Position numbers and translations under genes: made by a program | Shown here: positions 676-20,759 of the stretch, piece by piece | Layout of the letters: every line of letters begins with the position of its first letter | How positions within the stretch are numbered: the stretch's first letter is position 1 | Assembly (NCBI GenBank): GCA_964525635.1 | Contig: CAZGJX010000046.1 | Span: 2,478 to 29,936, forward strand | DNA from: an uncultured archaeon | GTDB taxonomy: Archaea; Asgardarchaeota; Lokiarchaeia; Sigyniarchaeales; SOKP01 | Direction of reading: 5' to 3' | DNA length: 27,459 nt | Notes under the pieces: model-generated | The model's input: only the letters and a program-made list of their open reading frames with translations | The model's database searches: none | What the model was told of the DNA's origin: nothing

Positions 676-1545
676 CTAATCAAAAATTTCATCTAATCTA
701 TCACACATTTGACCACAAAATTGACACCCTAAATAGTCAATATTTCGGGTTATTTGTTTGACAGAAGATTTACTTAAATTTTTAGAAATTTGTATCTGTG
801 ATTTAATTTTATCTAATTTTTTCTTAATTGTTAAATTTACTGGTTTTATAGGATTTTCACGATCACATTCTGGATGAGAATGCCATAATTCTAAATTTAA
901 ATCAATATTATCAGGAATGAGCTTTCTTGATAATTCACCATAAATTTTTAGTTGATCTAAATGACTTTTATATTCCCTTTTACCTGTTTTTAATTCAATT
1001 AATGTTATTGAAGAAAAACTATTATAAGAAATCATATCAATTTTTCCTTGTAGATAAATATTTGATTCTAATCTAGTTTTTATTGTAAGTTCATTATCAA
1101 TTAAAGTAGAGTAATAATTCCCATTTTTATCTAATTTTATTAATTTTTGAGAAATTTCTGCTAAAATTTCTAGTTGGGGTTCAATTAATTCTATAATTTC
1201 TTGTGCAGTATATGTCTCCAATAATGTATCCACATCTTCATAATTTAATTCTAATTCTTGTAATAGGGCAGAAATCTCATAAAATCTTTCTTTTAATACT
1301 TCATAGATAGCATTTTTAATTGATGATCTTTTCCGTACAATATAAAACAAGATTTTATCAAAAGATTTTTTAAAGGTATCTTGGATCAAAATATGAATTA
1401 ATCTTCCTACTATCATTGAATAACGCCATCTAGTAGGTTTTTCTAAGTCAATCCTTTTTTTTTTTACCCAAAATAAAATTGGGAATTTCCTTTCACATCT
1501 AAAATCATTAACTTCAGTAACTCCTATTTTTATGTTAAAATTCAT
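676..1545 (-). CDS. Cas4-like PD-(D/E)XK nuclease with 4-Cys Fe-S staple
   Basis: N-terminal FRCERK Cys, GRLIH, LQGKIDMI, IELKTG, QLKIYG and C-terminal CQFCGQMC give the Cas4/AddB motif order. ATGA overlap with the upstream Ago gene. Confidence 0.85.
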   Translation of the reverse strand: MNFNIKIGVTEVNDFRCERKFPILFWVKKKRIDLEKPTRWRYSMIVGRLIHILIQDTFKKSFDKILFYIVRKRSSIKNAIYEVLKERFYEISALLQELELNYEDVDTLLETYTAQEIIELIEPQLEILAEISQKLIKLDKNGNYYSTLIDNELTIKTRLESNIYLQGKIDMISYNSFSSITLIELKTGKREYKSHLDQLKIYGELSRKLIPDNIDLNLELWHSHPECDRENPIKPVNLTIKKKLDKIKSQIQISKNLSKSSVKQITRNIDYLGCQFCGQMCDRLDEIFD

Positions 1546-3440
1546 AATAAAAACCTTTGATATTCTTGATTTAAAATTGATATAATTGGTATATTAAAAA
1601 TATTCAATATTTGATATAACTCTATTGGTAAATTTGGTTTTATTAAACTTGTAGGATGTAAAAATGAATGAGAGAAAAATGAATTTAAGATATTGTAAAT
1701 AGTTGAATCATCCTTTGAATTAATTTTAATTAATATTGGATTTGGTATCCCTTTTTTTGGATTATCTGGATATCCATTAGATATAAGGCAAATGTTTGTA
1801 TATTCATTATCTTTTGAGATAATAAAATAAGAACCATTTTTAGGTATTTGAATATTATCATCAGATACTTTAAATATTTTAAATGGAATATCAAGTACTT
1901 CAGTAACATAAATATCCTGTATCTTTTCTATAGCATTATTGATATATGTTTTCAAATCTAAATTGTTTTTATAAACAATTATTAAATTTTTATTTTGTAC
2001 TTGTTTTTTTATCTTTGTTATTTCATTAAATATAAATTCACTTACCTTTTCTTTTATGAAAGTATTATTATTATAAGTAAGAGGTAGTAGAGAATTATTA
2101 ACAATATGTTTTTGGTCTATTAAAACAGATGAAAATATACAACAATATCCTAAATCAAAGTGTTTTGATATATTAAAACTAATTAAGATATTATTATCAT
2201 TTTGAATTTTTAAATAATTTCTATAGCTTATTCTAAATTTTAAAGACAAATATATTAAGATAAATTGGATTTCATATTCCTCGGACTCCGAAATAGTTTT
2301 TAATGTTAATACTTTATGGGGTAAAGAAAATCTTTGTTTAATTTCATCATAAATACTTTGAGAACCCATTTCTAAATTATTTAGTATAAAAAGTGAATTT
2401 ATATCTGAATTCGTATCAAATTCTAAATTATTATCATCAAATTTTTTCCCTATATTAAAATTTAGTTTTAAATCTTCAATTGAAATCACATTAAAATATT
2501 GTTTTATATGATCTAAAAAATTGTTGAGAATCTTTTTATCCTTATTTTTTAATTCTATAGTTTTATCAATTATAATTCTTATTGATAACTTCTCTTTCAT
2601 TTGAGTTAATATTTCTTCTTTTAAAAGATCTGAAAATGATTTTTCTCCATTAAGAATAATTGATTGAAGATTTGGATAACTAAGTTTTTTTTCTTGAATA
2701 ATTATCTTAGATTTAATTATATTTACATAGTTATCATTAACTAATAAACTTTCAATTAATATTGATATTTTATTTAGTCTATCTTGGAATTTTTCTATAG
2801 TATAACAATAAACATCTTCCCATTTTTTATTTATCTTTTCCATAATATACTCATTTTGAGGAAAATTTAAAATTGAGTCGTGTATTTCATAACGTGGGAT
2901 ATAAGTCAATATAAATTCTTCATTTTCATAATCTATAACGCCGAATTCTTCCGCTTCACATAATTCATATCTTGTTCTATAAGGAAAATCTGAATCTATG
3001 GAATCTATAGGTTCACCTCTTTTACTTATTCTACCTTTTGAGTATTTTTTTAAACAACTTCTAACCTCTTTAGCAGGTAAATAAATGCCATTGGAATTTT
3101 TAACAATTAAAAATTCTATATATAATTTTAAGAATAAATCAATAGACCTCAATTGATGAATAGACCATGGTTCAGAGATTTCATCTTTAATAATTATCAA
3201 ATTTGAACTAATCAAAAAAGAAAATTCATTTACATCATCTATATCTCTAAATATAATTCCAAAGTCCTCATTTTCATCTTGAAATATTGAAAAGGGAATA
3301 TTTATTGTATATTCTCCACTAGTTATATAATATCTCAATGAATCAATACTCATGGGATAATCCAGAGAAATCTTATATCTTCTTATATTTTCTTTTTTTA
3401 TTTTTAATTTCCATCCAGGTATCCAAATCAAGTTTATCAC
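1542..3440 (-). CDS. ago: Divergent, catalytically inactive prokaryotic Argonaute (Ago-B; MID-PIWI with reduced N-lobe)
   Basis: MID-like IYDEIK...LPHKVL...YLSLKFR; PIWI strand ILISFNIS (D to N); PKNGSYFII, LISNGYP..KGIPNPILI, SFLHPTSLIKPNLPIELY; hydrophobic C-terminus RFLL. GTG start overlaps the TAG of the upstream gene by 1 nt. Confidence 0.7.
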   Translation of the reverse strand: MINLIWIPGWKLKIKKENIRRYKISLDYPMSIDSLRYYITSGEYTINIPFSIFQDENEDFGIIFRDIDDVNEFSFLISSNLIIIKDEISEPWSIHQLRSIDLFLKLYIEFLIVKNSNGIYLPAKEVRSCLKKYSKGRISKRGEPIDSIDSDFPYRTRYELCEAEEFGVIDYENEEFILTYIPRYEIHDSILNFPQNEYIMEKINKKWEDVYCYTIEKFQDRLNKISILIESLLVNDNYVNIIKSKIIIQEKKLSYPNLQSIILNGEKSFSDLLKEEILTQMKEKLSIRIIIDKTIELKNKDKKILNNFLDHIKQYFNVISIEDLKLNFNIGKKFDDNNLEFDTNSDINSLFILNNLEMGSQSIYDEIKQRFSLPHKVLTLKTISESEEYEIQFILIYLSLKFRISYRNYLKIQNDNNILISFNISKHFDLGYCCIFSSVLIDQKHIVNNSLLPLTYNNNTFIKEKVSEFIFNEITKIKKQVQNKNLIIVYKNNLDLKTYINNAIEKIQDIYVTEVLDIPFKIFKVSDDNIQIPKNGSYFIISKDNEYTNICLISNGYPDNPKKGIPNPILIKINSKDDSTIYNILNSFFSHSFLHPTSLIKPNLPIELYQILNIFNIPIISILNQEYQRFLL

Positions 3441-5677
3441 TAAATAAAAATAGGTAAATTTGTTTCAATTTCTTTTATATTTGTGTTGATGAGATTATTC
3501 ATTAGATGTCTAACTGCATGTACAGGAAGCGGTAAAGTTATTCGAAATTGAGAATAACCAGTATAACATTGCGTTAAATCAAAAAGATTTTGTAACATCT
3601 CATCAAAATCAAAATCATACGATGATTCCTTCTTAACAACTTTAGTTGGTTGACATGTTCCCTGATAATTTTTGAATGATATAAAATATGCCTCATAGTT
3701 ATCTAAAATAATACAATCTCCAATTTTTGTTGGTGCTATTTTTCCATTTTTTTCAAAATAGATTCGGACTATTTTATTCTGATGTATTTCAAAAATAGAA
3801 AAATCTAAGTTATTTTTTTTGAAAGATTTTAGAAAAATATTTTTATCATCATCAAAAATATTTCCTAAAAACATACAATTTAAGGAATTATCAGAATCTA
3901 ATTTTATAATTTTATTTAAAATATTTATCAATTTAGTTTCAAATTCATTAATTTTACTTTTAAAGTAATATATTTTAATTAAAATTCCAATATTAGAGTA
4001 AATCGCTATTGATAATGCCTTTTCATCAGATTCTATATTTGAATGAATATTAATACCAAGATATAATTGATTTTTTCTCTCTTTTTTATCTAATCGCCAT
4101 GCTGTATATCCTGATTTAGCATATATACCTAAAAAAATATTTCTAAAATAATTAGTTATATTTTTATTATAACTTCTCATAAAAGTTGCGAAGTTTATTC
4201 CTTGAGTAGGAATCAATTTAGATTTATTATATAAATAGCTTTTTAGCTCTTTAACTGAGCTAATATTTTCTTTATTTAAATTTCCATAAACAAAAACAAT
4301 TATATCAATATTATTATTTTGAAGGAAAGTTTTTAAAGTCTCTAATTTAAATCCAATGTTACAAGGTGTATTAATTTCTTTTATATCAATATTTTTGAAA
4401 CTAAACATATTAGAGAAACATACTCTAAATTTTTGCGTATTTCTAAGAGCATCTTTAACTAAAGTAAAATCTGATCTATCAAAATCTCCAATATAAAGAA
4501 TACCTATAGAAATTGATTCATGAGTTTTTTCATTATAATCCCAAGATTTATATTTTTGTATTTCTAAAGCAGGAACCATAGATAAATTTCCATTATATAA
4601 TTCCAACGGAGTTTTTTTAAAATTTATTTTTCGACCTATAGATTCCTTTCTTTGTAGATAAAAAGGATTTGAAGATCTAAATTTAAGATTTGTAACAAAA
4701 ATATCCTTAAGAATTAATGCATAATCAAGAGATATTTTAAATCGAGATACGGGATCCAAAACAATTTCATCCATAATTTTTGGTCTATCTTTAGCATCAA
4801 TTCTTTCGAATCTTGGTTGAGGTCTTAATCTTTCAGGAGGAAAATCATAAGGTTTGTTAGAAATCTCTATTTTTATTGTTTTTAAATTGGGGTCTAAATG
4901 GTTTCCTAATATCTGCTTAAAGCATATTTTTTTTTTGTTATGATATTGAATTAAATTTTCACCAGAGATTGAAATTTCTTCACTTGTTTTTATATTTTCA
5001 TTTTTAAAGATTAATCCTGAAGAGGGTATAGAAAGTTTACAACTACTAAAAGAATTGGACTTTTCACTACATTTTTCTACTGGACAATAGTCAACTAAAT
5101 ACTTATTTTTTGATTGTTTTATCATTTCCAATAAATCTCTATTCCTTAAAGTATCTGTGTAAAATAATTTTACACGTGAGTCAATAAATAATCCAATTTT
5201 ACCATCAGAGAATAATCTTGGAGAAAAAACAAATCCCCTTTTTAATTCAATTTCACGACTTTTATATAAATATTCTTCAAATTTTAGAACTTCATATACA
5301 TGCCTTTTTACTTTTTCAGAAACTTTCCAAGTTTCTGAAGGATCATTCATAAGAAAATTGATTACTATAGATCCAATTAATTTTTCAATAAATTTTGTAT
5401 GTTCAGGATTGGTATAATTAAGTAATATTCTAACCTCTGACTGATAATTCTTCTCAAACTCTTCATTTGTTGTTTTTATATTATCACTTGAATAAATATC
5501 CTTTCCAATATGGAATATTGCTATTCTTTTATTATTTCTTCGTAGTTCTCTTACAATAAATCCAACATCGTTAAATTCTATATTCACATCTTCTAACGGA
5601 GAATATTTAACAATTTCTAAATTCTCACATAAAGGATTTTTATCAAATTCAAGAAAATTTAAAAGAATTCCTGTCAT
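3440..5677 (-). CDS. ago: Long prokaryotic Argonaute (Ago-A; N-L1-PAZ-L2-MID-PIWI), catalytically inactive
   Basis: N-terminal LLNF; L1 RGFVFSPRLFSDGKIGLFIDSRVK; PAZ LIQYH...YDFPPERL; MID ELK...IPTQGI...NIFLGIYAKSG..AWRL; PIWI LYLGINI, GDCIIL, QGTCQP, LFDLT...LPLPVH; C-terminal PIFI. The DEDX tetrad is absent. Confidence 0.9.
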   Translation of the reverse strand: MTGILLNFLEFDKNPLCENLEIVKYSPLEDVNIEFNDVGFIVRELRRNNKRIAIFHIGKDIYSSDNIKTTNEEFEKNYQSEVRILLNYTNPEHTKFIEKLIGSIVINFLMNDPSETWKVSEKVKRHVYEVLKFEEYLYKSREIELKRGFVFSPRLFSDGKIGLFIDSRVKLFYTDTLRNRDLLEMIKQSKNKYLVDYCPVEKCSEKSNSFSSCKLSIPSSGLIFKNENIKTSEEISISGENLIQYHNKKKICFKQILGNHLDPNLKTIKIEISNKPYDFPPERLRPQPRFERIDAKDRPKIMDEIVLDPVSRFKISLDYALILKDIFVTNLKFRSSNPFYLQRKESIGRKINFKKTPLELYNGNLSMVPALEIQKYKSWDYNEKTHESISIGILYIGDFDRSDFTLVKDALRNTQKFRVCFSNMFSFKNIDIKEINTPCNIGFKLETLKTFLQNNNIDIIVFVYGNLNKENISSVKELKSYLYNKSKLIPTQGINFATFMRSYNKNITNYFRNIFLGIYAKSGYTAWRLDKKERKNQLYLGINIHSNIESDEKALSIAIYSNIGILIKIYYFKSKINEFETKLINILNKIIKLDSDNSLNCMFLGNIFDDDKNIFLKSFKKNNLDFSIFEIHQNKIVRIYFEKNGKIAPTKIGDCIILDNYEAYFISFKNYQGTCQPTKVVKKESSYDFDFDEMLQNLFDLTQCYTGYSQFRITLPLPVHAVRHLMNNLINTNIKEIETNLPIFI

Positions 5678-5678
5678 T

Positions 5679-6383
5679 TTATTTACTCTTTGAAAATTTA
5701 ATATTTGTTATGTTAAAATTAATTGTATTTTTATATATATCATAAAAGATATTTTGAATTAGATTATAACAATAATAAAATCCACATATTTGAGGAAAAA
5801 TTAACATTTTTTTTCTTTTTATTTCACTTTGTCCATCTGAAAAATCTAAAAACTTAAAAAAGTTACGATTATTTGGTTGAATACTTGAGATAATTCTAAT
5901 TAAATTATAATTAACTTGAAGAGAAACATGAACAAAATCAGAATAGATCTCAATATTTATGAGACTATTTTCTCTTATATTTATATTGTATTTATATAGA
6001 ATTTTATCAATTTTTTTATTTAAATGATCTTGAATTTCTTCGGGATGAAATTCATTTTCATGAATGTTCAAACTAAAAATTCCAATTATATTCCATTCAA
6101 AATCTCCTTTCAGATGATCTAACCCTCTTATTAATTGGTTTTCGATTATTAATTCTGGTTCAATAGATAGTTTTTTAGCCCATATAAAATCATTTTTAAT
6201 TTCTATCAAACCCTTTTCTTTCATTTCTTTAAGTTTTTTAGAAATATCATCTTTAGATAATAATCCACTTTCATCAAAAGATTCCTCTGAAAATTTTTGA
6301 ATATAAAAATCATAAAAATCAATGAATTCTCCAACTTCTAGAGAACTTAAATATTTTTTTAAAATTTCTTCTAAAATTATCAT
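5679..6383 (-). CDS. Hypothetical Ago-operon protein with probable N-terminal winged-helix domain
   Basis: 234-aa ORF coupled to both neighbours (ATGA overlap, 1-nt gap). SKDDISKKLKEMKEKGLIEIKNDFIW resembles a wHTH recognition helix plus wing. C-terminal part not recognised. Confidence 0.55.
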   Translation of the reverse strand: MIILEEILKKYLSSLEVGEFIDFYDFYIQKFSEESFDESGLLSKDDISKKLKEMKEKGLIEIKNDFIWAKKLSIEPELIIENQLIRGLDHLKGDFEWNIIGIFSLNIHENEFHPEEIQDHLNKKIDKILYKYNINIRENSLINIEIYSDFVHVSLQVNYNLIRIISSIQPNNRNFFKFLDFSDGQSEIKRKKMLIFPQICGFYYCYNLIQNIFYDIYKNTINFNITNIKFSKSK

Positions 6384-7477
6384 ATTTTATCAAATATCAA
6401 TTCTTCAAAATATTGTTTAAATTTCAACTTTTCATTTGAATTGAAAAAGTTCTTCATATCCAAACCATCTAAATTTAAAAATTTTCCTCTAAATATTAAT
6501 ATAAAAGTATTATTTTCTTCTTTTATTAATTCATTTAAATGATTTAAATCTGATTGAAGTTCTCTTGTAATTTTTCTATCAATTAAATAAAAATAATAAC
6601 TTTTATCAAAAATATCTATTTTTAAAGGGATTTTAAATATATTATCTTTTTTTTTATATTCTATATTTATCATAACTTGGTCAATTTTTTCAATAAATTG
6701 CTCGAGACATGTTATGACTATCTCGAAATCATTTGATAACTCCTCTCTTATGTTTTTATTCTCATTGGTTTTGTAAAACATTACAACTTTATTTAAATCA
6801 ATTTTATATAAAGTGCGTGATTTTATTGTTTTTCCTTCAGATTTTTTAGTGATGATTCTGAGAATCTCACCGAGGATTTTCGATGAAATATTTTTATCAA
6901 CATTAAATTTTTTTTCTATTTTCTTTAAGCTTTCTTCTTCAATACCTTCTGTAGTGCTATCAAGATTTCTAGAGGGATAAAAATAGGGTGTTAATTCTAA
7001 GGATTTTAAAAAATCGAAAAATCTAACTCTATTTTTTTTGTTTATAAGATAATTTAATTTTTGAAATTCAGCATCTCTCTCTTTATTTTTATTTTTTTTT
7101 AAAAAAATTACAAAATCTCTAATATCAGAATTAAATGCTTGATTTGTTATAAAAGAAAATTTAAAGTCTAGTTTTTTTACTGGATCTAAATTCAATTTTT
7201 TATATATTTTCTCCCGATCTTTTGAAAAAATCTCAAATAAATGATCTATTGTATCCTTGATCCCGTTTAATTTCCAATGTCCATCATCTTTTTTTTTAAT
7301 TTGTCTAAATATAATATAATTCTCAAATATGCAGTTAATATCCTCAATGACATTGCTAGGACTTTCTATTATTATAAATCTAAAATCTTTTTTATCAAGA
7401 TTTTCCATTAAAGATAAAAACACGCAATAATCTTGATAATTGTATCCTCTCTTACTTTCTGTTCCACTCGATGGAAT
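6380..7477 (-). CDS. Cap4/DUF4297/Mrr-like dsDNA endonuclease domain protein (start extended 18 codons to ATT 7477)
   Basis: The ORF track starts at GTG 7423, but the frame stays open to 7477: IPSSGTESKRGYNYQDYCVF. The SG..S..GY.YQD motif followed by E....ED and RQIKK is the Cap4/LmuA-type nuclease signature. AAGGT SD-like site upstream; in-frame TAG at 7480-7478. Confidence 0.75.
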   Translation of the reverse strand: MPSSGTESKRGYNYQDYCVFLSLMENLDKKDFRFIIIESPSNVIEDINCIFENYIIFRQIKKKDDGHWKLNGIKDTIDHLFEIFSKDREKIYKKLNLDPVKKLDFKFSFITNQAFNSDIRDFVIFLKKNKNKERDAEFQKLNYLINKKNRVRFFDFLKSLELTPYFYPSRNLDSTTEGIEEESLKKIEKKFNVDKNISSKILGEILRIITKKSEGKTIKSRTLYKIDLNKVVMFYKTNENKNIREELSNDFEIVITCLEQFIEKIDQVMINIEYKKKDNIFKIPLKIDIFDKSYYFYLIDRKITRELQSDLNHLNELIKEENNTFILIFRGKFLNLDGLDMKNFFNSNEKLKFKQYFEELIFDKI

Positions 7478-7661: not shown

Positions 7662-10600
7662 ATGATTAGTTTAAAATCTCCTTATATAGATAATCTCAAC
7701 TTAGTACAATTAAGAGAAGTGAAACCATCATTAGTTTCTTTCCGTACAATTAGGTATTCTAAAAAGGAATATATGAAAAATATAGCTATTGAATATTATC
7801 CAAATCGTGAATCAAGGGAAACAATTTACTTAAACCGATTAGGAGGAGAATCTTTCCTTGAAGATACTTTAATGGTATTACAAGAGCATGAACCAAATAT
7901 ACTATTATACTTACCTCAATCAATTCCAGTAACTGGTAAAAAATTAGGCAAAAAACTCGAATATATAAGAAAAGATGGAATTATTGAAGAATGGACTCCA
8001 GATAATGCATCTCTTTGGATAGAACAAAAACCAAAGATAATTGAAGTAAAATCAATAGAATGGATTAACTCTCTTTCTTCTAAGGAAAAGAAAAAATTAT
8101 TTTATAAATGGGATCAGGCAAAAGAATTTGCTGATAAACATGGTTTTGAATTTCAAATATTTACAGATGAATTTATCAATCAAAGTTGGAGAGTTGAGAA
8201 TATAAGAGATCTTGAAAGTCAAATGCGATTTTCAGAGAAGGAACATGAAGAAATAATAATAGAATTTATTTATAATAATAGAGATAAAAATTTAACAGTT
8301 AAGAAACTGCAGAGAGAGTTAGAATTAAAAAGTATCTCAAAACAAGAGATCACTAAAGCAATATGCAGCTTAATTTATCGTCAAAAGATATATATTGATT
8401 TAGAAAAAGAATTTAGATTTGATAAGACTATTCTTAAAATTCCTAATGAGAACCTTTATGAAATTCCATTAAATAAATGGCTTGACTTATATAAATTTCA
8501 GTGGAATTCAAAAGATACTGAAATTAAATCTTGTAAGGAGGATTTTGGAATAATTAATCGATCAAATCTTACAGAATATCAAAAAAATATAGAAATTAAA
8601 AACAGAGATATAATTCAAGCAATTGAAAATGGGGATTATTATAAGAATATTATAAGAAAATTTAAGATTAGCTATGGAAAGTTCCATAATTTAAAAATAT
8701 TATATTTAAAATTTCTTAGTAAAGAAATCTCTGAAAAAGAATTTCAACGTGCTTTAATTCCTCAGAAACCAAGTGGTCGAAGAAAAACAAGATTATTTGA
8801 TGTTGATAAATATGGTAAAGCAATTTTTTATGATCTTAGATTTAAAGATGCTATAGAAATCTGTATTGAAAAACAAAATAGATTGAATTATACAGATGCA
8901 TGGAGATTCTATAAAAGATTTAAAAGATTAGATGCATTTCAACAGGGTTTAACGACGAAAACTAGTGAACTTCTTTCAGTATTACTAGAGATTTCAAAAA
9001 TTAATCCTAATTTTAAACATACAACTGCTAATATTTTTAGAAATGAGATTAAAAGATATTGTCAACATTTTTATAAACGTGTAATAACAAAGCGAGAAGG
9101 ATTAAAACAAGCGATGAAAGAGTCTATGATTATTACAGGAGCAACCCCTTATACAAATTATATTGGTCAAATGGTTCAGATTGATCACACATTAACAGAT
9201 ATTATAAATAAAGTGGCTCTTCCAATTACTATTTTTATTGAGAACCAAAAATTAATTCGAAAGAAAAAAAATAAACGATATTATATGGATCGAACATCTA
9301 TTACTGTTTTAGAGGATGTTCATACAGGGGTAATTTTGGGTTATGCTTTTCGATATCGAAAACCAAGTATAGAGTCTGACTTTCAGGCAATAAGAAGAAT
9401 GGTGGTAGGTAATGTAAATCCATTAATAAATGCTATTGATTCAAATAAAGAAATTATTACGGCTGAAAAAAATTATTCAAGTACAATTGGAAAAATACTG
9501 CGAGGAATTCAAGAAATGGTAGTAATGGATATTTTACCAAAAGAAGAATATGAAATGATTCAATTAGAATTTGATCCTAATTATAAAGATAATTTACGAG
9601 CTATTGCTGATTGGTGGGATCATATTCGTGTTATACCTTATTTATTACATATGGATAACGGAAGAGATTTTACTAGTATACAAATGAAAAAATGGATGGC
9701 AAAAAATCATATAAATACAGCATATCGCCCTGTGGGGGGCTCACAATATGGTGGTCATGTTGAAAGATTACTTGGAACTTTAAATCGACAAGCTTTTCAT
9801 GAGATGACAGGTACAACTAAAAGTAACCCAAATAAGCGAGGAGGATATTCAAGTGAAAAATTTGCGATACTAACTTTTGAACAACTTGAGGCATTATTAT
9901 TATTAGCAATTATTCGTTATCATGCATCTCCTCATAATAAGGATAATTTATCACCTCGAGAAAAATGGCGACAAGCCTATGAAGATAATGGACATAATTT
10001 TCATTTTTTACCATCTGGAAAAATTAAAGAACTAACATCGAGAATGAAAAATCAGATACATCAACTGGCTTGGGATTTAATGCCAGAAAAAAAAATAATA
10101 TATAACCTGAAAGATGGACTTACAATTAATAAAATAAAATATAATGATATAAAATTAGCAAATTATTTAAGAGATAAACAAAAGGTAAGAATTCGATATT
10201 CTAACTCAGATATAAGATTTGTTTGGTGGTGGAATTCTCATGAAGATAGACCCATTCCAATCTGGGCTAAGAAAATAAAATTAGGAGATCGAGTATATAA
10301 TAAAAATCAATTACAACGTATACCAATCATTTCTAATCTTCAATTCCAAGATATGCAGAATTTGCCCTTATGGAAAATGGGAATGGAATTATCAGATGAA
10401 TATGAACGTATAGTTAATAGTGCAGAAAATGTACATTATAGTATTTATAAGAATATTCCCAAATCATTAAAAGAAATCAAGAAAATAGATGCGAATATTG
10501 CAAAGAAAATTGATGAAGGAAGAATAGAAGCTAAAGAAATGAAAGAATTAAACCAATATCTTGATTTTGAAAATGCAAATCAATCTAATAATAGAATCAC

Positions 10601-10787
10601 AATTAACCATAATTTAAAAAAGTTAAATAAAAAGGATCAGAAGAAGGAGTTAAAGAAATTATGGCAACAAAAACCAGTAATAGTTAAAAATATAATAATT
10701 CCACCAAAAAAAACAAATCCATTTACAAATAAGAAAATTAATTTAAAAGATATTAATAAGCAAAAGAATAGTGATTTAAATGGCTAA
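7662..10787 (+). CDS. tnsAB: Tn7-like TnsA-TnsB fusion transposase
   Basis: N-terminal TnsA endonuclease (ESFLE, WTPD D114, IIEVK, KW..AK.FA...GFEFQIFTD) and wHTH. TnsB DDE core QIDHT (D508), MDNGRDF (D665), GGHVERLLGTLN (E701), then GTTKSN, YH..PH...SP.EKW and a Mu-type C-terminal barrel (VRIRYSNSDI). Confidence 0.92.
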   Translation: MISLKSPYIDNLNLVQLREVKPSLVSFRTIRYSKKEYMKNIAIEYYPNRESRETIYLNRLGGESFLEDTLMVLQEHEPNILLYLPQSIPVTGKKLGKKLEYIRKDGIIEEWTPDNASLWIEQKPKIIEVKSIEWINSLSSKEKKKLFYKWDQAKEFADKHGFEFQIFTDEFINQSWRVENIRDLESQMRFSEKEHEEIIIEFIYNNRDKNLTVKKLQRELELKSISKQEITKAICSLIYRQKIYIDLEKEFRFDKTILKIPNENLYEIPLNKWLDLYKFQWNSKDTEIKSCKEDFGIINRSNLTEYQKNIEIKNRDIIQAIENGDYYKNIIRKFKISYGKFHNLKILYLKFLSKEISEKEFQRALIPQKPSGRRKTRLFDVDKYGKAIFYDLRFKDAIEICIEKQNRLNYTDAWRFYKRFKRLDAFQQGLTTKTSELLSVLLEISKINPNFKHTTANIFRNEIKRYCQHFYKRVITKREGLKQAMKESMIITGATPYTNYIGQMVQIDHTLTDIINKVALPITIFIENQKLIRKKKNKRYYMDRTSITVLEDVHTGVILGYAFRYRKPSIESDFQAIRRMVVGNVNPLINAIDSNKEIITAEKNYSSTIGKILRGIQEMVVMDILPKEEYEMIQLEFDPNYKDNLRAIADWWDHIRVIPYLLHMDNGRDFTSIQMKKWMAKNHINTAYRPVGGSQYGGHVERLLGTLNRQAFHEMTGTTKSNPNKRGGYSSEKFAILTFEQLEALLLLAIIRYHASPHNKDNLSPREKWRQAYEDNGHNFHFLPSGKIKELTSRMKNQIHQLAWDLMPEKKIIYNLKDGLTINKIKYNDIKLANYLRDKQKVRIRYSNSDIRFVWWWNSHEDRPIPIWAKKIKLGDRVYNKNQLQRIPIISNLQFQDMQNLPLWKMGMELSDEYERIVNSAENVHYSIYKNIPKSLKEIKKIDANIAKKIDEGRIEAKEMKELNQYLDFENANQSNNRITINHNLKKLNKKDQKKELKKLWQQKPVIVKNIIIPPKKTNPFTNKKINLKDINKQKNSDLNG

Positions 10788-12075
10788 AAGCGAAAAATTT
10801 GATGAGGGATTTAATGAATATGACATAAATGAGAATCATTTCTCCTTGATCCATATTAAAGAGAAATATTATGAGCTTATAACTAAAATTAATCAAAGAA
10901 CTGCATTTTATATGTATGATCCATCAGAAATTATAATTCGAAAAGGTTTATTTCCTCGATTTAGAAATGCATTTCTTGATTTAAATGAACGTGGTCGAAT
11001 TTTATTTATCTATGGTGATTATACTACAGGAAAATCTTTTTTAATACGTTATTTTGCATGGCTTTGTAAAGTCAAATTTAGTTCTTATTGGAAGACAACC
11101 AAAGATGGAAGAAAAACGCATCCTATAATAATAAAGAATTTAATAGATAGTATCCGAAGTGTTGAGGGATTCTATACTTGGTTACTTGAAAGTCTTGGAA
11201 ATCCTGTTGATCCAAGACAATTGAAAGAATGGGAAAAGACTAAAGTAAAATTGGTAAAACTTCGTAAAAGAGTTATTAAAACTTTGGATGCCTATGAAAC
11301 AAGACTTCTTATTCTTGATGAGAGTCAAAGATTACTTAAAGCAGGTGATAAACATCAAATTGCTGGAATATTTGAAGCCTTAAAAGACTTAACTACTAAA
11401 AATCATTGGGATGAATTAGGTTGTACTCATCGACCTTATTTTGTTTTATGTGGTACCACAGACTGTCTTTATTTACTGAGAGCAGGTAAATTTATCCAAG
11501 GCAGAGTTCACACATGTCCTTTAGAATCAATCTCAGTAGATAAATATCATGAATTTTTAGCTACAATTTATACTGATTTTATTAATTTAGGTGTTTCTAA
11601 CAAATGGGATTTATTTTATAAACAAGGAGATGAACTTATTATTAATGAAGAAATAGGAATGACGCTTTTTGAAAGAACTCAAGGAAAAGCAGGATTAACT
11701 GTTGAGATTGTTCGTCATGCTGTTTTGGATGCTTTAGAACATGGTAATGAATATCCTAAATTGAATAATTATAAAGAAGTAATCTTGGAAGGAACAAAAT
11801 ATATTATCAAAAAAGAAAGTATTGATGAAAAGAATGCAATAAATATAGAAGAAGATGATGAAGAACAAATTAATCCTCAATCTGAAGAAAAAATAAATAC
11901 TCGGAAAGCAATCCAAGTTATTATAGATGATAAAACACTCTTATGTGCCTTTAGAGGATGTCCAAAATCTAAAAAACCATATAAACGTGATTGGTATTTA
12001 ATAAACCATTATAAAACGGAACATCCAGAGGTAGAATTATATGACAATGAAGGAAATAGATTGGATAACAATTAA
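10780..12075 (+). CDS. tnsC: TnsC/TniB-like AAA+ ATPase with C-terminal C2H2 zinc finger
   Basis: Walker A GDYTTGKS, Walker B LLILDESQ, sensor VLCGT, Arg finger QGRV; 8-nt overlap with tnsAB. C-terminal CAFRGC...Y.....LINHYKTEH. Confidence 0.9.
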   Translation: MAKSEKFDEGFNEYDINENHFSLIHIKEKYYELITKINQRTAFYMYDPSEIIIRKGLFPRFRNAFLDLNERGRILFIYGDYTTGKSFLIRYFAWLCKVKFSSYWKTTKDGRKTHPIIIKNLIDSIRSVEGFYTWLLESLGNPVDPRQLKEWEKTKVKLVKLRKRVIKTLDAYETRLLILDESQRLLKAGDKHQIAGIFEALKDLTTKNHWDELGCTHRPYFVLCGTTDCLYLLRAGKFIQGRVHTCPLESISVDKYHEFLATIYTDFINLGVSNKWDLFYKQGDELIINEEIGMTLFERTQGKAGLTVEIVRHAVLDALEHGNEYPKLNNYKEVILEGTKYIIKKESIDEKNAINIEEDDEEQINPQSEEKINTRKAIQVIIDDKTLLCAFRGCPKSKKPYKRDWYLINHYKTEHPEVELYDNEGNRLDNN

Positions 12076-13162
12076 AGATAGAATTAAACCATTTGAAATA
12101 ATACCAAGTTATATTGATTTATGGACTGATCTTGGTATCTGGTATTTACATAATGAAGATTTTTTTTCAGATTGGTTAAAACAGAAATTTTCTGAATTGA
12201 AAGAGATCATTAGAAAATTCTATGATAATGATATTTTAAAGGAGGAAAATAAAGAAAAATCTTTAAATTATTCATATATAAGAAAATTAGTCTATGGTAT
12301 TTCAAAATATCAAAATATATATGATGCTTTATTCTTTGCTAATGGTTGGAAAGGATTAATCGGATTAGAGTTAGCAAAAACTAAGTTAAAATTATTTTAT
12401 AATAAGAACAAAAGATTTCCAACTCAAAGAGAGATGGATATCATTTCTAATAAAGTAATTCAAAAGAAAAAATATTGGAAAAAATTCGGAATTAACTCAT
12501 GGAATGATTTATTAAAAGAAACATTTGGTCAAGTAAATAAAACATATAATATACATCGAGGGAAAAAAGGTTTAGAAAAAGCTAAATATTGTTTGTTAAA
12601 TTTTCAAAAAAAACAGAAAAGATTACCTACAGCAAGAGATAAAATGATGATAACCTATTCTAATGTAGTTGCAAGAGGTATTTGGAGCGAATTTGGAATC
12701 AATACATGGAATGATCTCTTAATTTATACTTTTAAAAAAATAAATAAATCAAGCAATTTATATAAAGGTGAATTAGGTCTTAATAGAGCTAAAATTGTAC
12801 TAAAAAATTATTATAAAAAATATAAAAAAAAACCTACATCTGAAATAAAAGAGGTTGCAAGTATTTTAGTTGCAATAAAGAGGAATTATTGGTCTAAATT
12901 TGGAATAAAATCTTGGAATGATCTTTTAGAAAATGTATTTGGAAATGTGAATGTGAGAAAAGGAATATGGACTGGAGAAAAAGGATTAGAAAGAGCAAAA
13001 GAAAAATTAAAAAGCTTTTTTATAGATAATAATGCATTACCAACAAATAAAACAAAAGGTTTTGGAGGAATTGTAAAAGCAATCCAGAGAGGTTATTGGA
13101 AACAACAAAATATACACTCTTGGAATGAATTTATATTTTTCGCATTTAAAAAAAATAAATAA
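12041..13162 (+). CDS. Tandem-repeat protein (N-terminal ~100-aa domain plus 4 ~69-aa repeats), putative DNA-binding
   Basis: Four copies of G..GL..AK..L..F......P.......I....RG.W..FGI.SWNDLL...FG, similar to homing-endonuclease-associated (HNH_repeat-like) helical repeats. GAGGT SD; overlaps tnsC; alternative ATG at 12047. Confidence 0.7.
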   Translation: MTMKEIDWITIKDRIKPFEIIPSYIDLWTDLGIWYLHNEDFFSDWLKQKFSELKEIIRKFYDNDILKEENKEKSLNYSYIRKLVYGISKYQNIYDALFFANGWKGLIGLELAKTKLKLFYNKNKRFPTQREMDIISNKVIQKKKYWKKFGINSWNDLLKETFGQVNKTYNIHRGKKGLEKAKYCLLNFQKKQKRLPTARDKMMITYSNVVARGIWSEFGINTWNDLLIYTFKKINKSSNLYKGELGLNRAKIVLKNYYKKYKKKPTSEIKEVASILVAIKRNYWSKFGIKSWNDLLENVFGNVNVRKGIWTGEKGLERAKEKLKSFFIDNNALPTNKTKGFGGIVKAIQRGYWKQQNIHSWNEFIFFAFKKNK

Positions 13163-13198
13163 TTTAAAGTTAAAAGAAATAGATTAAGGGAATTCAAA

Positions 13199-15976
13199 AT
13201 GAATGTTATATGTAATACAATAAAAAAAGAAAAGATTTCTGACAATATTAAATCATTTAAAATAGATCATCAATTTATTAATATTTGGGAACATCCGCGA
13301 ATATGGACACTAAAATCTATTAAATATTGCTCTAAATGGTTAATAGAAGAACTTAACCGAATTAAATTAATTTTACTAAAATTTATAGATATTGGTTATT
13401 CAAATCATAATAACGATGGTTTTGATTATTTCTTTCTAAGAAATCTTAAATATTGGTTAATTGAAAAAGAAGATTTTTTAGAAGCATTATTTAAAGTAAA
13501 TGGATGGCAAGGTCGTCTTGGGCTTGAGATTGCTGCAAGTAAATTAAGATATTTTTTTGCCAAAAATAAAAGATTTCCAAAAACAAAAGATAAAGGAATG
13601 ATTAGGATAAGGAATTCTGTTTTATCAACTGAAAATTGGAAAGATTTAGGAATTCTATCTTGGGATGATCTATTAATTTTCACTTTTGGAGAAAAAACAA
13701 TTAAAGAATGGCAGGATCTTAAAGAAAAAAAGAAATTTCAAAAAGCAATTAAAGAATTAAATAAATTTTATAAGAAAGAACAAAGGTTGCCAAAGTATAG
13801 TGATAAAGAAATATATTGGATATCAGGAGCAGTATCTAAGGGTATTTGGAAAAAATATGGGATAGATGTGTGGAATGACTTATTAAAACACGTCTTTGGG
13901 AAAGTAAATGTAGAATATCATATTTATGATGGAATTGAAGGACTTAAGAAAGCAAAAGAAGAATTATTGAATTTTAATAAAAAATATAATAAATTACCAA
14001 CATCAAAAGATTTTGAATCTATGGCTAAAGCTATATATAGAGGTATTTGGGAAGAATATAGTATAATAACTTGGAATGATTTATTAAGAAGAATTTTTGG
14101 AGAAGTTAATTTAAATCTTCAAAAGGAGTATATGGGTGATGATATACTTCTTAGGATTAGAGAAGAATTAAAGAATTTTGTGAAACAAAAAGGAAGACTT
14201 CCAAAATCTAATGATAAGGAGATGGGGTCAATAATAAGTGCTATTGGGAGGGGTGTACTAAAAAAATATGGGATAAGGACTTGGAATGATTTGCTGAAAA
14301 GTACTTTTGGAAAAATTAATAGGGATACAACCCAATATCATGGGATTGAAGGTCTTAAAAAAGCAATTATTAAATTAAAGAAATTTAAGGAAAAACATAA
14401 AAGAGAACCTAATACAGGGGAAATGGATACTATATATAGAACTGCCATCCGTGGAGAATGGAAAGAATTTAATATATTAAATTGGGATAATTTACTTGAT
14501 TTTACATATGGAAGATATAATAGAGAAATAAATAGATATAAAGGGAGAATTGGATTAAATAATGCGGTTCAAGAACTGAAAAAGTACAGAGAAAAATATG
14601 GAAAAAAACCGATTTCAAATATGAAAGGAATGAGAGTAATTTATAATACTATAAATAGAGGTGAATGGAAAGAATTTGGAATTAATTCTTGGAATGATTT
14701 ACTTTTATTTGCTTTTGGAGAAATTTATTATGAAAAAAATAAATATAAAGGTATAAGAGGATTAGAACGAGCAAAACAAGTATTAGAAGATTTTAAAAAC
14801 ATAAATGGAAAAATACCTTCACAAAAAAACAAAGGGATGGGAGGAATTGTAACTGCGATAGGAAGAGGTGAATGGAAAGAATTTGGAATTCACTCTTGGA
14901 ATGATTTGCTCAAGTTAAAATTTGGAGAAATCAATTATCAACCAAATAAATATTTAGGTAAAAAGGGACTTAATACAGCTATAAAAAAATTAAGAGATTT
15001 TAAAAAAAAATATGGGAAAAAGCCAACCTCACATTCAAAAGGAATGAATGGAATAATTGGAGCTATCGGAAGAGGAGAGTGGAATGAATTTGGAATTTAT
15101 TCATGGAATGATTTACTAAAAAGAACTTTTAGAGAAATAAATTTTGAACCTGATAAATATAAAGGAAGACAAGGATTTGAGAGGGCAATTCAAGAATTAA
15201 GAGATTTTAAGAATAAATATGGAAAAAAACCAACTTCCAATACTAAAGGATTTAGTGGAATTTATAAAATTATTCAACAGGGAAGATGGAAAAAATATAA
15301 TATAAATTCTTGGAATGATTTGCTTATGCATACTTTTGGAGAAATATATATTGAAACAAATAAATACAAAGGTAAACTAGGACTTAAGAGAGCTATTCAA
15401 GAATTAAAAGAATTTAAAATAAAATATGGTAGAATTCCTATCATAAAAGATAAAGGTATGGGGGGGATTGTTAATGCAATTCTTAGGGAGGAATGGAAAG
15501 GATTTGAAATTAACTCTTGGAATGATTTACTCATAACAACTTTTAAAGAACTTAATAAAGAAAAAAATAAATATTTAGGGAAGGAAGGATTTAAGAGAGC
15601 TATTCAAGAATTGAAGGATTATAAGAAGAAGTATGGAAAAATACCTTCTTCTAAAAGTAAAGGAATATTTGTAATATATAACAATGCTCGATTGGGTAAA
15701 ATGAAAGAATTTGGAGTAAATAATTGGAATGATTTATTAAAAATTGCTTTTGGAACTTTTAATCAAGAAAACAATAAATATATAGGAGAAAAGGGACTTG
15801 AGAGAGCCAAATCTGAATTAAGAGAATTCAAGAGAATTAATGGTAAAATACCAACATCGAAAAGCATGGGGATTAAAACTATTTATAAAACAGCTCGCCT
15901 TGGTAAATGGAAAGAATTTGGTATTAATAATTGGCATGATTTACTTTTTAATACTTTTCATCCTGATGAATTATAG
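13199..15976 (+). CDS. Tandem-repeat protein (paralogous N-terminal domain plus 12 ~69-aa repeats), putative DNA-binding
   Basis: 12 W(N/D/H)(D/N)LL motifs; N-terminal domain alignable with that of 12041-13162. Confidence 0.75.
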   Translation: MNVICNTIKKEKISDNIKSFKIDHQFINIWEHPRIWTLKSIKYCSKWLIEELNRIKLILLKFIDIGYSNHNNDGFDYFFLRNLKYWLIEKEDFLEALFKVNGWQGRLGLEIAASKLRYFFAKNKRFPKTKDKGMIRIRNSVLSTENWKDLGILSWDDLLIFTFGEKTIKEWQDLKEKKKFQKAIKELNKFYKKEQRLPKYSDKEIYWISGAVSKGIWKKYGIDVWNDLLKHVFGKVNVEYHIYDGIEGLKKAKEELLNFNKKYNKLPTSKDFESMAKAIYRGIWEEYSIITWNDLLRRIFGEVNLNLQKEYMGDDILLRIREELKNFVKQKGRLPKSNDKEMGSIISAIGRGVLKKYGIRTWNDLLKSTFGKINRDTTQYHGIEGLKKAIIKLKKFKEKHKREPNTGEMDTIYRTAIRGEWKEFNILNWDNLLDFTYGRYNREINRYKGRIGLNNAVQELKKYREKYGKKPISNMKGMRVIYNTINRGEWKEFGINSWNDLLLFAFGEIYYEKNKYKGIRGLERAKQVLEDFKNINGKIPSQKNKGMGGIVTAIGRGEWKEFGIHSWNDLLKLKFGEINYQPNKYLGKKGLNTAIKKLRDFKKKYGKKPTSHSKGMNGIIGAIGRGEWNEFGIYSWNDLLKRTFREINFEPDKYKGRQGFERAIQELRDFKNKYGKKPTSNTKGFSGIYKIIQQGRWKKYNINSWNDLLMHTFGEIYIETNKYKGKLGLKRAIQELKEFKIKYGRIPIIKDKGMGGIVNAILREEWKGFEINSWNDLLITTFKELNKEKNKYLGKEGFKRAIQELKDYKKKYGKIPSSKSKGIFVIYNNARLGKMKEFGVNNWNDLLKIAFGTFNQENNKYIGEKGLERAKSELREFKRINGKIPTSKSMGIKTIYKTARLGKWKEFGINNWHDLLFNTFHPDEL
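13500..15960 (+). repeat. Coding tandem repeat, 207-bp period
   Basis: Trp codons of the WNDLL motif at 13661, 13871, 14072, 14282, 14483, 14690, 14897, 15104, 15311, 15518, 15725 and 15932. The last seven intervals are exactly 207 bp. Confidence 0.95.
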
Positions 15977-16320: not shown

Positions 16321-17172
16321 CTATTCTGGGAGATGTTTTAATATGTCTGATGTATATGTTTTACATTTTTCAGAGTCCTCTTCGTTAAATCGATTATGTG
16401 CTAGATCGTTTCGAATGCTTGATATTCTTTCAAAAAAAGCCTTTAGGGTATGGGAGGATCCAAAAATTTTTTCAAAAATATTTATCCAATTTTTTTTTTG
16501 CATCATTATAAAAAGATAATCAATGAAGCTAAGGAAATCAATAACATCGTAATATCGTTTAGGTTCCTCTTTTTCTTTTTTGATTTTTCTTTTTTCGGCA
16601 TTCTCTCGGAGGTTTGTTCCTACTCCTAAATTCCACCAATCCTCCCCGTATTGTTTTTTCAATTGGTCTTTAACAAACATCCTCATTTTTATTTCAAAAT
16701 CTTCAATTAATTTCTTGGTAGCTTCTTTTGCATCAATGTTTTTATCTTCAATTTCACCGATTTTTATTGATGAATCCTTAAATTTTAGCCATTCAATAAT
16801 TATTGTGAGTTGTTCGTATTTTTTCTCTCTAAAGATTGTTTTTGGTATATAAGGACTTCCAATTTCCCAATATTTGGAATCTCCAAGCGGATCAAACATA
16901 ATTGTGGTAGAATGTTCAGCAATTTTTACTATATCAGAATATATGTTACTCAACCTTAATTGTGGATTTGCTTTAATATTCTCCTTAGTTATAAAGAATT
17001 TATTTTCTATATCTTCGTCAGGAGAAATTATCTTTATTGAAATTTGTTTAGGTTCGGGTTCTGGAACGCGCCATTTAGGGATGTATAATTTAAACTCAAC
17101 CCCTTCGACATCAGCCACCCATAATATTTTATTAGGTGTTGTTTTTTTAAAGTTCGCAATAATTTCGTACAT
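16321..17172 (-). CDS. Swt1-like HEPN domain protein with uncharacterised N-terminal domain
   Basis: C-terminal FEIKMRMFV...YGEDWW...DFLSFIDY...NW..IF..IF...RNDLAH with an intact Rx4H motif. Confidence 0.8.
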   Translation of the reverse strand: MYEIIANFKKTTPNKILWVADVEGVEFKLYIPKWRVPEPEPKQISIKIISPDEDIENKFFITKENIKANPQLRLSNIYSDIVKIAEHSTTIMFDPLGDSKYWEIGSPYIPKTIFREKKYEQLTIIIEWLKFKDSSIKIGEIEDKNIDAKEATKKLIEDFEIKMRMFVKDQLKKQYGEDWWNLGVGTNLRENAEKRKIKKEKEEPKRYYDVIDFLSFIDYLFIMMQKKNWINIFEKIFGSSHTLKAFFERISSIRNDLAHNRFNEEDSEKCKTYTSDILKHLPE

Positions 17173-17190
17173 TGTAATAAAACTAATTAA

Positions 17191-20745: not shown

Positions 20746-20759
20746 CTCATTTTAAAATA

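Follow-up and report, generated by a model that had tools for sequence, protein, structure and literature searches.

Do two Argonaute genes that lie side by side in an archaeal genome, both encoding proteins without slicer residues, serve a single immune system? This question is raised by a 27,459-nt stretch of DNA from an uncultured archaeon of the Asgardarchaeota (Lokiarchaeia, order Sigyniarchaeales; assembly GCA_964525635.1, contig CAZGJX010000046.1, positions 2,478 to 29,936), which was analyzed as a whole and is called the window here. Its left end holds a tight minus-strand operon of five open reading frames (ORFs), in which the genes for a presumed nuclease effector and a 234-aa protein (genes 1 and 2) precede those for two Argonaute-fold proteins, Ago-A and Ago-B (genes 3 and 4), and a predicted Cas4-family nuclease (gene 5; Table 1). 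The initial annotation had read genes 3 and 4 as tandem, inactive Argonautes that might form an obligate pair, and its coordinates, protein lengths (745 and 632 aa), and 1-nt TAG/GTG overlap proved correct on the minus strand. We found that the pairing recurs in more than 12 distantly related loci, archaeal and metagenomic, and it therefore looks like an undescribed Argonaute immune system with two PIWI proteins. Both Argonaute-fold proteins are slicer-dead and under purifying selection, and they are co-inherited with the Cas4-like nuclease. The reading that we favor, and that we consider fairly probable, is a conserved five-gene, two-Argonaute defense cassette of Asgard and related archaea that works like other inactive prokaryotic Argonaute (pAgo) systems.

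The Argonaute fold of Ago-B became visible only through a structure model and a family profile, because direct sequence searches were practically empty. The sequence by itself had no Pfam or NCBIfam match, a phmmer search against the PDB returned nothing relevant, and the PADLOC pAgo model matched it weakly (E value = 1.3e-4, residues 430-608). An exhaustive profile search yielded 45 cluster representatives, ~35 of which were full length (583-705 aa) and 19-37% identical to the query. Individually, 11 of 34 family members matched pAgo hidden Markov models (HMMs), with E values down to 4e-19, and the family profile matched the PIWI domain of 9iad (E value = 2.2e-7). The AlphaFold2 (AF2) model of Ago-B, built from the family alignment, had a predicted local distance difference test (pLDDT) score of 89.3 and a predicted template modeling (pTM) score of 0.88. 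Its top Foldseek matches were Argonautes only (E values from 1e-22, for Siwi, to 1e-17), and VIA-align aligned 490-540 residues across positions 1-632 with PIWI-clade, human, Asgard, and bacterial Argonautes (Z scores of 22-24). The alignments with HrAgo1, TtAgo, KmAgo, and hAgo2 covered the model from residue 1 to 632, the N-terminal lobe (N-L1-L2) included, and the MID-PIWI fold of AfAgo was recovered over residues 248-632 (Z score = 23.7, root mean square deviation = 3.6, 345 residues). In the ESM Atlas, Ago-B matched Argonaute clusters over residues 1-632 with a template modeling (TM) score of ~0.7, among them a cluster of SIR2-APAZ-pAgo fusions (TM score = 0.71). These fold comparisons bear out the MID and PIWI domains that had first been read from motifs.

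The suspected absence of a clear PAZ domain from Ago-B was upheld as well. In the model, no more than two helices (residues 197-232) separate an L1-like hairpin (residues 146-188) from the L2 elements, and neither the model nor Pfam revealed a PAZ domain. From the order of the secondary-structure elements, which also sets the domain boundaries, we infer an N-L1-L2-MID-PIWI layout without PAZ. The first catalytic Asp (D1) is replaced by N423 (ISFNI), in a column that is variable and does not have Asp among its six commonest residues, and VYKNN stands at the RDG position, where the family has no conserved acidic residue; Ago-B is thus catalytically dead family-wide. Its MID pocket (Y364-x3-K368...H375-K376...R403) matches a variant, Y-K-K-R, of the 5′-phosphate pocket of the Y/R-K-Q-K type and is a predicted binding site. 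Across 34 family members at 19-70% identity, K368, K376, and R403 were present in all 34 and Y364 in 31, with His in the other 3.

Ago-A, for its part, matched the PADLOC pAgo model over nearly its full length (E value = 1.5e-34). A word-indexed search gave 7 relatives of Ago-A even with an alignment as the query, the word index probably being saturated by the AT-rich composition; further Ago-A sequences were taken from the neighbors of Ago-B relatives, and family-wide statements below refer to 14 members. Against the Argonautes in the PDB, the Ago-A family profile scored best with CpAgo (E value = 3e-27) and CbAgo (2e-20), followed by KmAgo, PfAgo, and AaAgo (~1e-15), and it gave an E value of ~0.5 for the long-B RsAgo; by sequence, Ago-A would be closest to the long-A pAgos. 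The claim that Ago-A has all the domains of a long pAgo stood in part. The HMM alignment with CpAgo spans residues 219-715 and includes the PAZ region; the AF2 model, made from a shallow alignment, was acceptable for MID-PIWI only, with pLDDT scores of <50 at residues 165-346. Because the model is unreliable there, the PAZ assignment rests on the CpAgo alignment from residue 219. Near this region, outside the CpAgo alignment, four cysteines (Cys198, Cys203, Cys213, and Cys252) are invariant in 14/14 family members, which suggests that PAZ, or the sequence beside it, contains a zinc-binding insert.

In the same HMM alignment, the catalytic Asp of the CpAgo GLDV motif corresponded to Asn543 of Ago-A (LGINI) and the RDG Asp to Gly605 (FLGN). 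In the family, N, Q, or S occupies position 543, Gly stands at position 605 in 14/14, and the last tetrad position (D4) is V, A, or S (V/A for Ago-A itself, which has no DEDX tetrad). With every one of these tetrad positions non-catalytic across the 14 members, the whole Ago-A family is slicer-dead. Hence the replacement of the first PIWI Asp by Asn and the missing RDG Asp, noticed at first in one protein of each kind, hold across both families as a loss of catalytic residues. The MID pocket of Ago-A consists of V475, K479, Q492, and K521 (motif V-x3-K...TQ...K521). Q492 and K521 are invariant, K479 is present in 9/14 members, and position 475 is V, E, K, H, C, or Y; the 5′ pocket of Ago-A is, as predicted from these residues, degenerate in part throughout the family.

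Next, we compared the two proteins with each other. In an hhalign comparison, Ago-A and Ago-B aligned with 97% probability (E value = 2.8e-11) at 15% identity, restricted to MID/PIWI, and the alignment paired ISFNI with LGINI and VYKNN with FLGN. Homology confined to MID/PIWI at this level of identity indicates an old divergence and not a recent duplication. The initial annotation had described the two MID pockets as complementary, Ago-A having TQ and AKxG without the Tyr of YxxxK, and Ago-B having YDEIK with HK at the SQ/TQ site. Judging from the alignments, this difference between the 5′ pockets is genuine and extends through both families: Ago-B has all four positions, and Ago-A has just Q492 and K521 together with a PAZ region.

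The evidence that the two Argonautes belong together comes from gene order and shared descent. Within the operon, the junctions of consecutive genes from gene 1 to gene 5 are a 4-nt overlap, a 1-nt gap, a 1-nt overlap, and a 4-nt overlap. The Ago-A/Ago-B junction reads ...ATT TAG TG ATA..., with one base common to the TAG stop and the GTG start, and the two genes are by this arrangement predicted to be translationally coupled. In 13/13 loci with enough flanking sequence (the window and L001, L008, L010/L029, L012, L028, L030, L031, L032, L033, L037, L038, and L039, L numbers denoting loci), Ago-A lay directly upstream and the Cas4-like gene directly downstream of Ago-B. The usual genes farther upstream in these relatives encode a 228-238 aa protein and a Cap4/LmuA-like protein of ~346-422 aa. 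Furthermore, when Ago-A, Ago-B, and the Cas4-like protein were each compared pairwise between loci, their identities correlated at 0.94-0.97 (10 loci, down to ~22% identity), and the same loci paired up in all three identity matrices, indicating that the triad has been passed on as one unit across divergence to ~22% identity. These results support one system with two Argonautes.

Some natural variants depart from this arrangement. In L003, the gene after the Ago-A homologue (33% identity) encodes a 319-aa protein whose homology to Ago-B is limited to residues 4-318 of the latter, and this locus has neither a remnant of the Ago-B MID-PIWI part nor a Cas4-like gene. In L004/L005, Ago-A is internally deleted, with residues ~68-548 gone and the remnants in different frames (L004:2584-3300, same in L005), and the Ago-B, Cas4-like, 234-aa, and Cap4-like genes are intact. 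Both variants speak against strict interdependence of the Argonautes, and they head a list of points that weigh against the cassette as we read it. Ago-A of L039 (147-2399) has a single in-frame stop at 723-725, with a nonsense mutation, recoding, or an error in sequencing as conceivable causes. No recognizable family was found for the 234-aa protein, the Cap4-like assignment of gene 1 combines weak HMM matches with a language-model feature match, and the PAZ region of Ago-A, where the model is unreliable, was placed by sequence alignment to CpAgo alone. In addition, the guide type, the target type, and the role of the effector are deduced from homology and gene order. As for the obligate Ago-Ago pair proposed at the outset, the strict synteny in 13 loci and the co-divergence agree with a pair, and the word "obligate" became questionable, given that L003 and L004/L005 have each lost one Argonaute.

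The same variants are what would be expected if the operon combined two independent pAgo modules without direct contact between the Argonautes. A BPAN-like abortive-infection sensor-effector would then consist of Ago-A, the 234-aa protein, and the Cap4-like nuclease, and Ago-B and the Cas4-like nuclease would be an APACE-like pair for guide processing or interference. The joint loss of the Ago-B MID-PIWI part and the Cas4-like gene in L003, which kept the nuclease, a 238-aa protein, and Ago-A, and the loss of most of Ago-A next to an intact Ago-B and Cas4-like gene in L004/L005 would follow this division, and pAgo-ACE1 heterodimers are documented (PMC12094033). Against it, the two modules adjoin each other in an unchanging order in 13/13 loci with flanks, no Ago-B family member was seen that lacked an Ago-A gene or remnant directly upstream, and the genes are coupled and co-diverging as described above. 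L003, moreover, keeps the N-terminal half of Ago-B beside Ago-A, which suggests that this half serves the Ago-A side. The co-loss in L003 and the Ago-A loss in L004, each a single case, thus fit a two-module organization in which the N-terminal half of Ago-B sits on the Ago-A side; two modules that work independently seem to us unlikely.

To return to the single cassette, we asked whether its genes are under selection, Ago-B included. Pairwise ratios of nonsynonymous to synonymous substitution rates (dN/dS) between close relatives were 0.18-0.26 for Ago-B (0.35 for the closest pair), 0.18-0.20 for Ago-A, 0.11-0.21 for the Cas4-like nuclease, and 0.14-0.17 for the 234-aa protein, values that are approximate owing to saturation (dS of 0.6-1.1). 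In the case of L004/L005, the closest relative (L034) gave a slightly raised Ago-B dN/dS of 0.35. Over 10 loci, the mean pairwise identity was 0.26 for Ago-B versus 0.28 for Ago-A, so that Ago-B evolves slightly faster. By these estimates Ago-B is clearly under purifying selection and not a decaying duplicate; the relaxed selection that the initial annotation had considered for it was not seen, and ~35 diverged clusters are full length. Nevertheless, Ago-B could be imagined as a degenerating or purely structural paralogue, an APAZ-like scaffold without nucleic-acid binding that leaves Ago-A as the sole guide-binding sensor. Its lack of PAZ and of catalytic residues, its slightly faster divergence with slightly higher dN/dS, and the retention of just the N-L1-L2-like half in L003 would all agree with such a role. 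We consider it improbable because Y364, K368, K376, and R403 vary little or not at all among 34 members, whereas the first two equivalent positions of Ago-A are not conserved, because the dN/dS of Ago-B is ~0.2, and because its ORFs are intact in ~35 diverged clusters.

We then turned to the genes around the Argonautes. The gene 1 protein of the window matched the PADLOC LmuA model weakly (E value = 5.7e-3), and its L003 orthologue matched LmuA (8.8e-6) and HamA (3.4e-4). When the extended ORF of gene 1 was used for a feature search of the Atlas, Cap4_nuclease clusters came back (0.96; 194 features in common). Gene 1 is presumed from these matches to encode a Cap4/LmuA/HamA-like PD-(D/E)xK nuclease that acts as the effector. 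The frame is open for 54 nt 5′ of the GTG start (7424-7477, minus strand) and encodes GYNYQD there, a motif typical of Cap4/DUF4297 N termini. Because 7424-7477 contains no ATG, GTG, or TTG, translation probably begins at a non-canonical codon, in which case the nuclease would be shortened by automated annotation. In L010/L011 the first cassette gene (2727-4028) encodes a 433-aa metallophosphatase (PF00149) in place of the Cap4-like nuclease, and this swap points to an exchange of effectors. Gene swaps of this type are typical of interchangeable effectors.

Two further loci have unusual genes beside the cassette. In L012 alone (1-2777), a gene for a 937-aa SMC_N/AAA_23 ATPase lies directly upstream of the Cap4-like cassette gene, an arrangement reminiscent of LmuB next to LmuA in Lamassu; it could be a hybrid or a mere neighboring system. 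In L003 (4277-5233 and 5250-7786), the 319-aa gene precedes a 197-aa ORF and a gene for a 520-aa nitrilase-like protein, which matched the models of nitrilases associated with DRT (E value = 1.8e-18). The 197-aa ORF and the nitrilase-like protein may be an alternative effector module.

The 234-aa protein had no significant match in Pfam, PADLOC, or NCBIfam, and its Atlas matches stayed below the threshold (≤0.81); orthologues at 22-80% identity were present in L001, L003, L004, and L008. Gene 5 matched the PADLOC Cas4 model (E value = 1.3e-4), its orthologues had precomputed matches to PF12705 (PDDEXK_1), and one of them matched PF01930 (Cas_Cas4) weakly. Wherever flanking sequence was available, it directly adjoins the 3′ side of Ago-B. 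Gene 5 is thus a predicted Cas4-family nuclease, similar in kind to the ACE nucleases that accompany Argonautes.

How might such a cassette work? The Cas4-family nuclease would make or trim small nucleic-acid guides, as ACE1 does for long-A pAgos (PMC12094033), and Ago-B would anchor the 5′-phosphorylated guide. The Argonaute pair would then recognize complementary invader nucleic acid and switch on the Cap4/LmuA-like nuclease, and this nuclease (or, in one lineage, the metallophosphatase) would degrade DNA in an abortive-infection-type response. That Ago-A and Ago-B form a physical complex is a tentative proposal, somewhat doubtful in our estimate. A complex prediction with truncated Ago-A (residues 380-745) and full Ago-B gave an interaction score (ipSAE) of 0.00-0.01, which counts neither for nor against contact. 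An obligate heteromeric sensor, in which Ago-B holds the 5′ phosphate of the guide and Ago-A provides the PAZ/zinc-finger lobe and couples target recognition to the Cap4-like effector, seems to us less likely still. If it existed, the archaeal lineage nearest to eukaryotes would possess a two-Argonaute complex that resembles the RNA-induced silencing complex.

Whatever the contacts between them, two very different Argonautes that are kept together down to ~22% identity imply guide handling or signaling that needs both. The cassette may be regarded as a natural experiment on the splitting of Argonaute functions, one protein having the 5′-end pocket and the other PAZ, and it would connect sensing by Argonautes with both Cap4 effectors of the Lamassu type and guide processing of the Cas4 type. 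Its occurrence in Asgard archaea matters because the diversification of Argonautes there is discussed in relation to the origin of eukaryotic RNA silencing. Moreover, as the proteins are compact and slicer-inactive, a guide-dependent two-component switch could interest biotechnology.

Table 1. Operon genes and other features of the window (window positions; aa, amino acids)
Feature	Position	Strand	Details
Gene 1, presumed Cap4/LmuA/HamA-like nuclease	7423..6380, frame open to 7477	minus	347 aa, GTG start (mechanical ORF call)
Gene 2, 234-aa protein	6383..5679	minus	family not recognized in Pfam/PADLOC/NCBIfam
Gene 3, Ago-A, long Argonaute	5677..3440	minus	745 aa, ATG start
Gene 4, Ago-B, predicted PAZ-less Argonaute	3440..1542	minus	632 aa, GTG start
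Gene 5, predicted Cas4-family PD-(D/E)xK nuclease	1545..676	minus	289 aa
1041-aa ORF, TniB/AAA_22-like ATPase, repeat proteins	7662-15976	plus	1041-aa ORF without Pfam match; ATPase 431 aa; repeat proteins 373 and 925 aa; divergent from Ago operon
HEPN-Swt1 protein	within 16321-24350	minus	283 aa
PLD-SNF2 helicase	within 16321-24350	minus	1184 aa
N6-adenine methyltransferase with TaqI-like specificity domain	within 16321-24350	minus	1196 aa

The HEPN-Swt1 protein, the PLD-SNF2 helicase, and the N6-adenine methyltransferase mark the surroundings of the operon as a defense island. The GC content is ~22%, and the DNA of the window is present in salt-marsh metagenomes. In the host genome (4.45 Mb, 245 contigs) there are four genes for actin-family proteins, with a top score of 443 bits, whereas a search of it for SSU rRNA gave no hit. 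Full-length members of the Ago-B family were found in 7/400 genomes of the host phylum, patchily across families, as expected for a mobile defense module, and a search with a narrow Ago-B alignment found a 70%-identical copy of Ago-B on a single contig of a metagenome-assembled genome labeled "uncultured archaeon." This copy and the actin-family genes point to an Asgard-type archaeal host. It is highly improbable that the neighboring Tn7-like element (7662-15976) uses the Ago operon as a targeting module for guided transposition: the operon divergently adjoins the TniB/AAA_22 ATPase gene, and transposition genes were reported in the operon of HrAgo2, from a different Asgard archaeon (PMC11217426), but the 1041-aa, 431-aa TniB-like, 373-aa, and 925-aa genes had no homologue in the cassette loci compared (tblastn), so that the linkage looks specific to the source genome, and the flanks of further cassette loci showed no transposase, TniB, or TniQ family, those in relatives holding BREX, restriction-modification, GmrSD, SMC-type, or unrelated genes.

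Finally, we compared the cassette with known systems. The characterized prokaryotic Argonaute systems that we found in the literature (long-A, long-B, SPARTA, SPARSA, SPARDA, SPARHA, SiAgo, DdmDE, and SLFN-pAgo) each have a single PIWI protein. Surveys of pAgo diversity describe genomes with two pAgo genes and no tandem pair (PMC6299218), and such a pair goes unmentioned in two studies of Asgard Argonautes (PMC11217426, PMC11291487). Our literature searches, whose coverage was incomplete, turned up no tandem or two-Argonaute operon, and within this coverage nothing contradicted the initial annotation's statement that described inactive pAgo systems have one PIWI protein. The two Argonaute-like chains of 8xih (579 and 735 residues), at first sight a candidate for a solved hetero-Argonaute, had no sequence match to the Ago-A or Ago-B profiles, no paper citing the entry turned up in the literature covered, and the chains were not used as evidence; they may be one protein modeled to different extents, and the fold library keeps both chains of homomers (4kpy_A and 4kpy_B).

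Inactive long-B pAgos activate co-encoded nucleases (PMC10620215, PMC13535254), and the long-B systems (BPAN, BPAS, and BPAM; e.g., EcBPAN) resemble the cassette in having a full-length dead Argonaute beside a nuclease effector, their effect presumably arising from target-activated collateral damage (PMC10620215, PMC13535254). They have one Argonaute, however, whereas the cassette has two different ones and a second nuclease, of the Cas4 family; Ago-A is also nearer to CpAgo (E value = 3e-27) than to RsAgo (~0.5), and the effector here is Cap4/LmuA-like. The Cas4-family protein ACE1 forms a heterodimer with a long-A pAgo and trims its guides (PMC12094033). The cassette shares with cyanobacterial APACE1 a gene for a Cas4-family PD-(D/E)xK nuclease that adjoins an Argonaute gene, as well as the sequence affinity to long-A pAgos. 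In contrast to the APACE pAgos, which are active slicers, single, and bacterial, both Argonautes here are inactive, and it is the PAZ-less Ago-B that precedes the Cas4-like gene; the likeness to ACE is one at the level of the Cas4 family.

The distribution of Argonaute function over two polypeptides recalls the heterodimers of short pAgo with APAZ and of AfAgo with AfAgo-N, in both of which one Argonaute is split over two chains (PMC10954474). The PAZ-less N-L1-L2-MID-PIWI layout of Ago-B is like a fusion of APAZ and short pAgo, and the 319-aa N-L1-L2-like half in L003 stands as a separate protein, like AfAgo-N (PMC10954474). The short pAgo/APAZ and AfAgo pairs nonetheless have a single PIWI domain and jointly make up one Argonaute, whereas two complete MID-PIWI modules are present here, and Ago-B has no fused effector domain.

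With Lamassu and ABC-3C the cassette shares a gene order in which a Cap4/LmuA-like nuclease comes first and a ~230-aa protein second, that is, an effector and a middle component, which we take as an analogy and not as membership. Lamassu/ABC-3C has an SMC/ABC ATPase (LmuB) as its sensor, whereas the Argonaute pair occupies the sensor position here; the five-gene operon has no LmuB/ABC ATPase gene beside its nuclease gene, and the 234-aa protein did not match the LmuC models of PADLOC. Since the described types all have a single PIWI protein, the cassette falls outside each of them, and by analogy it would act most like an inactive-pAgo system with a nuclease effector.

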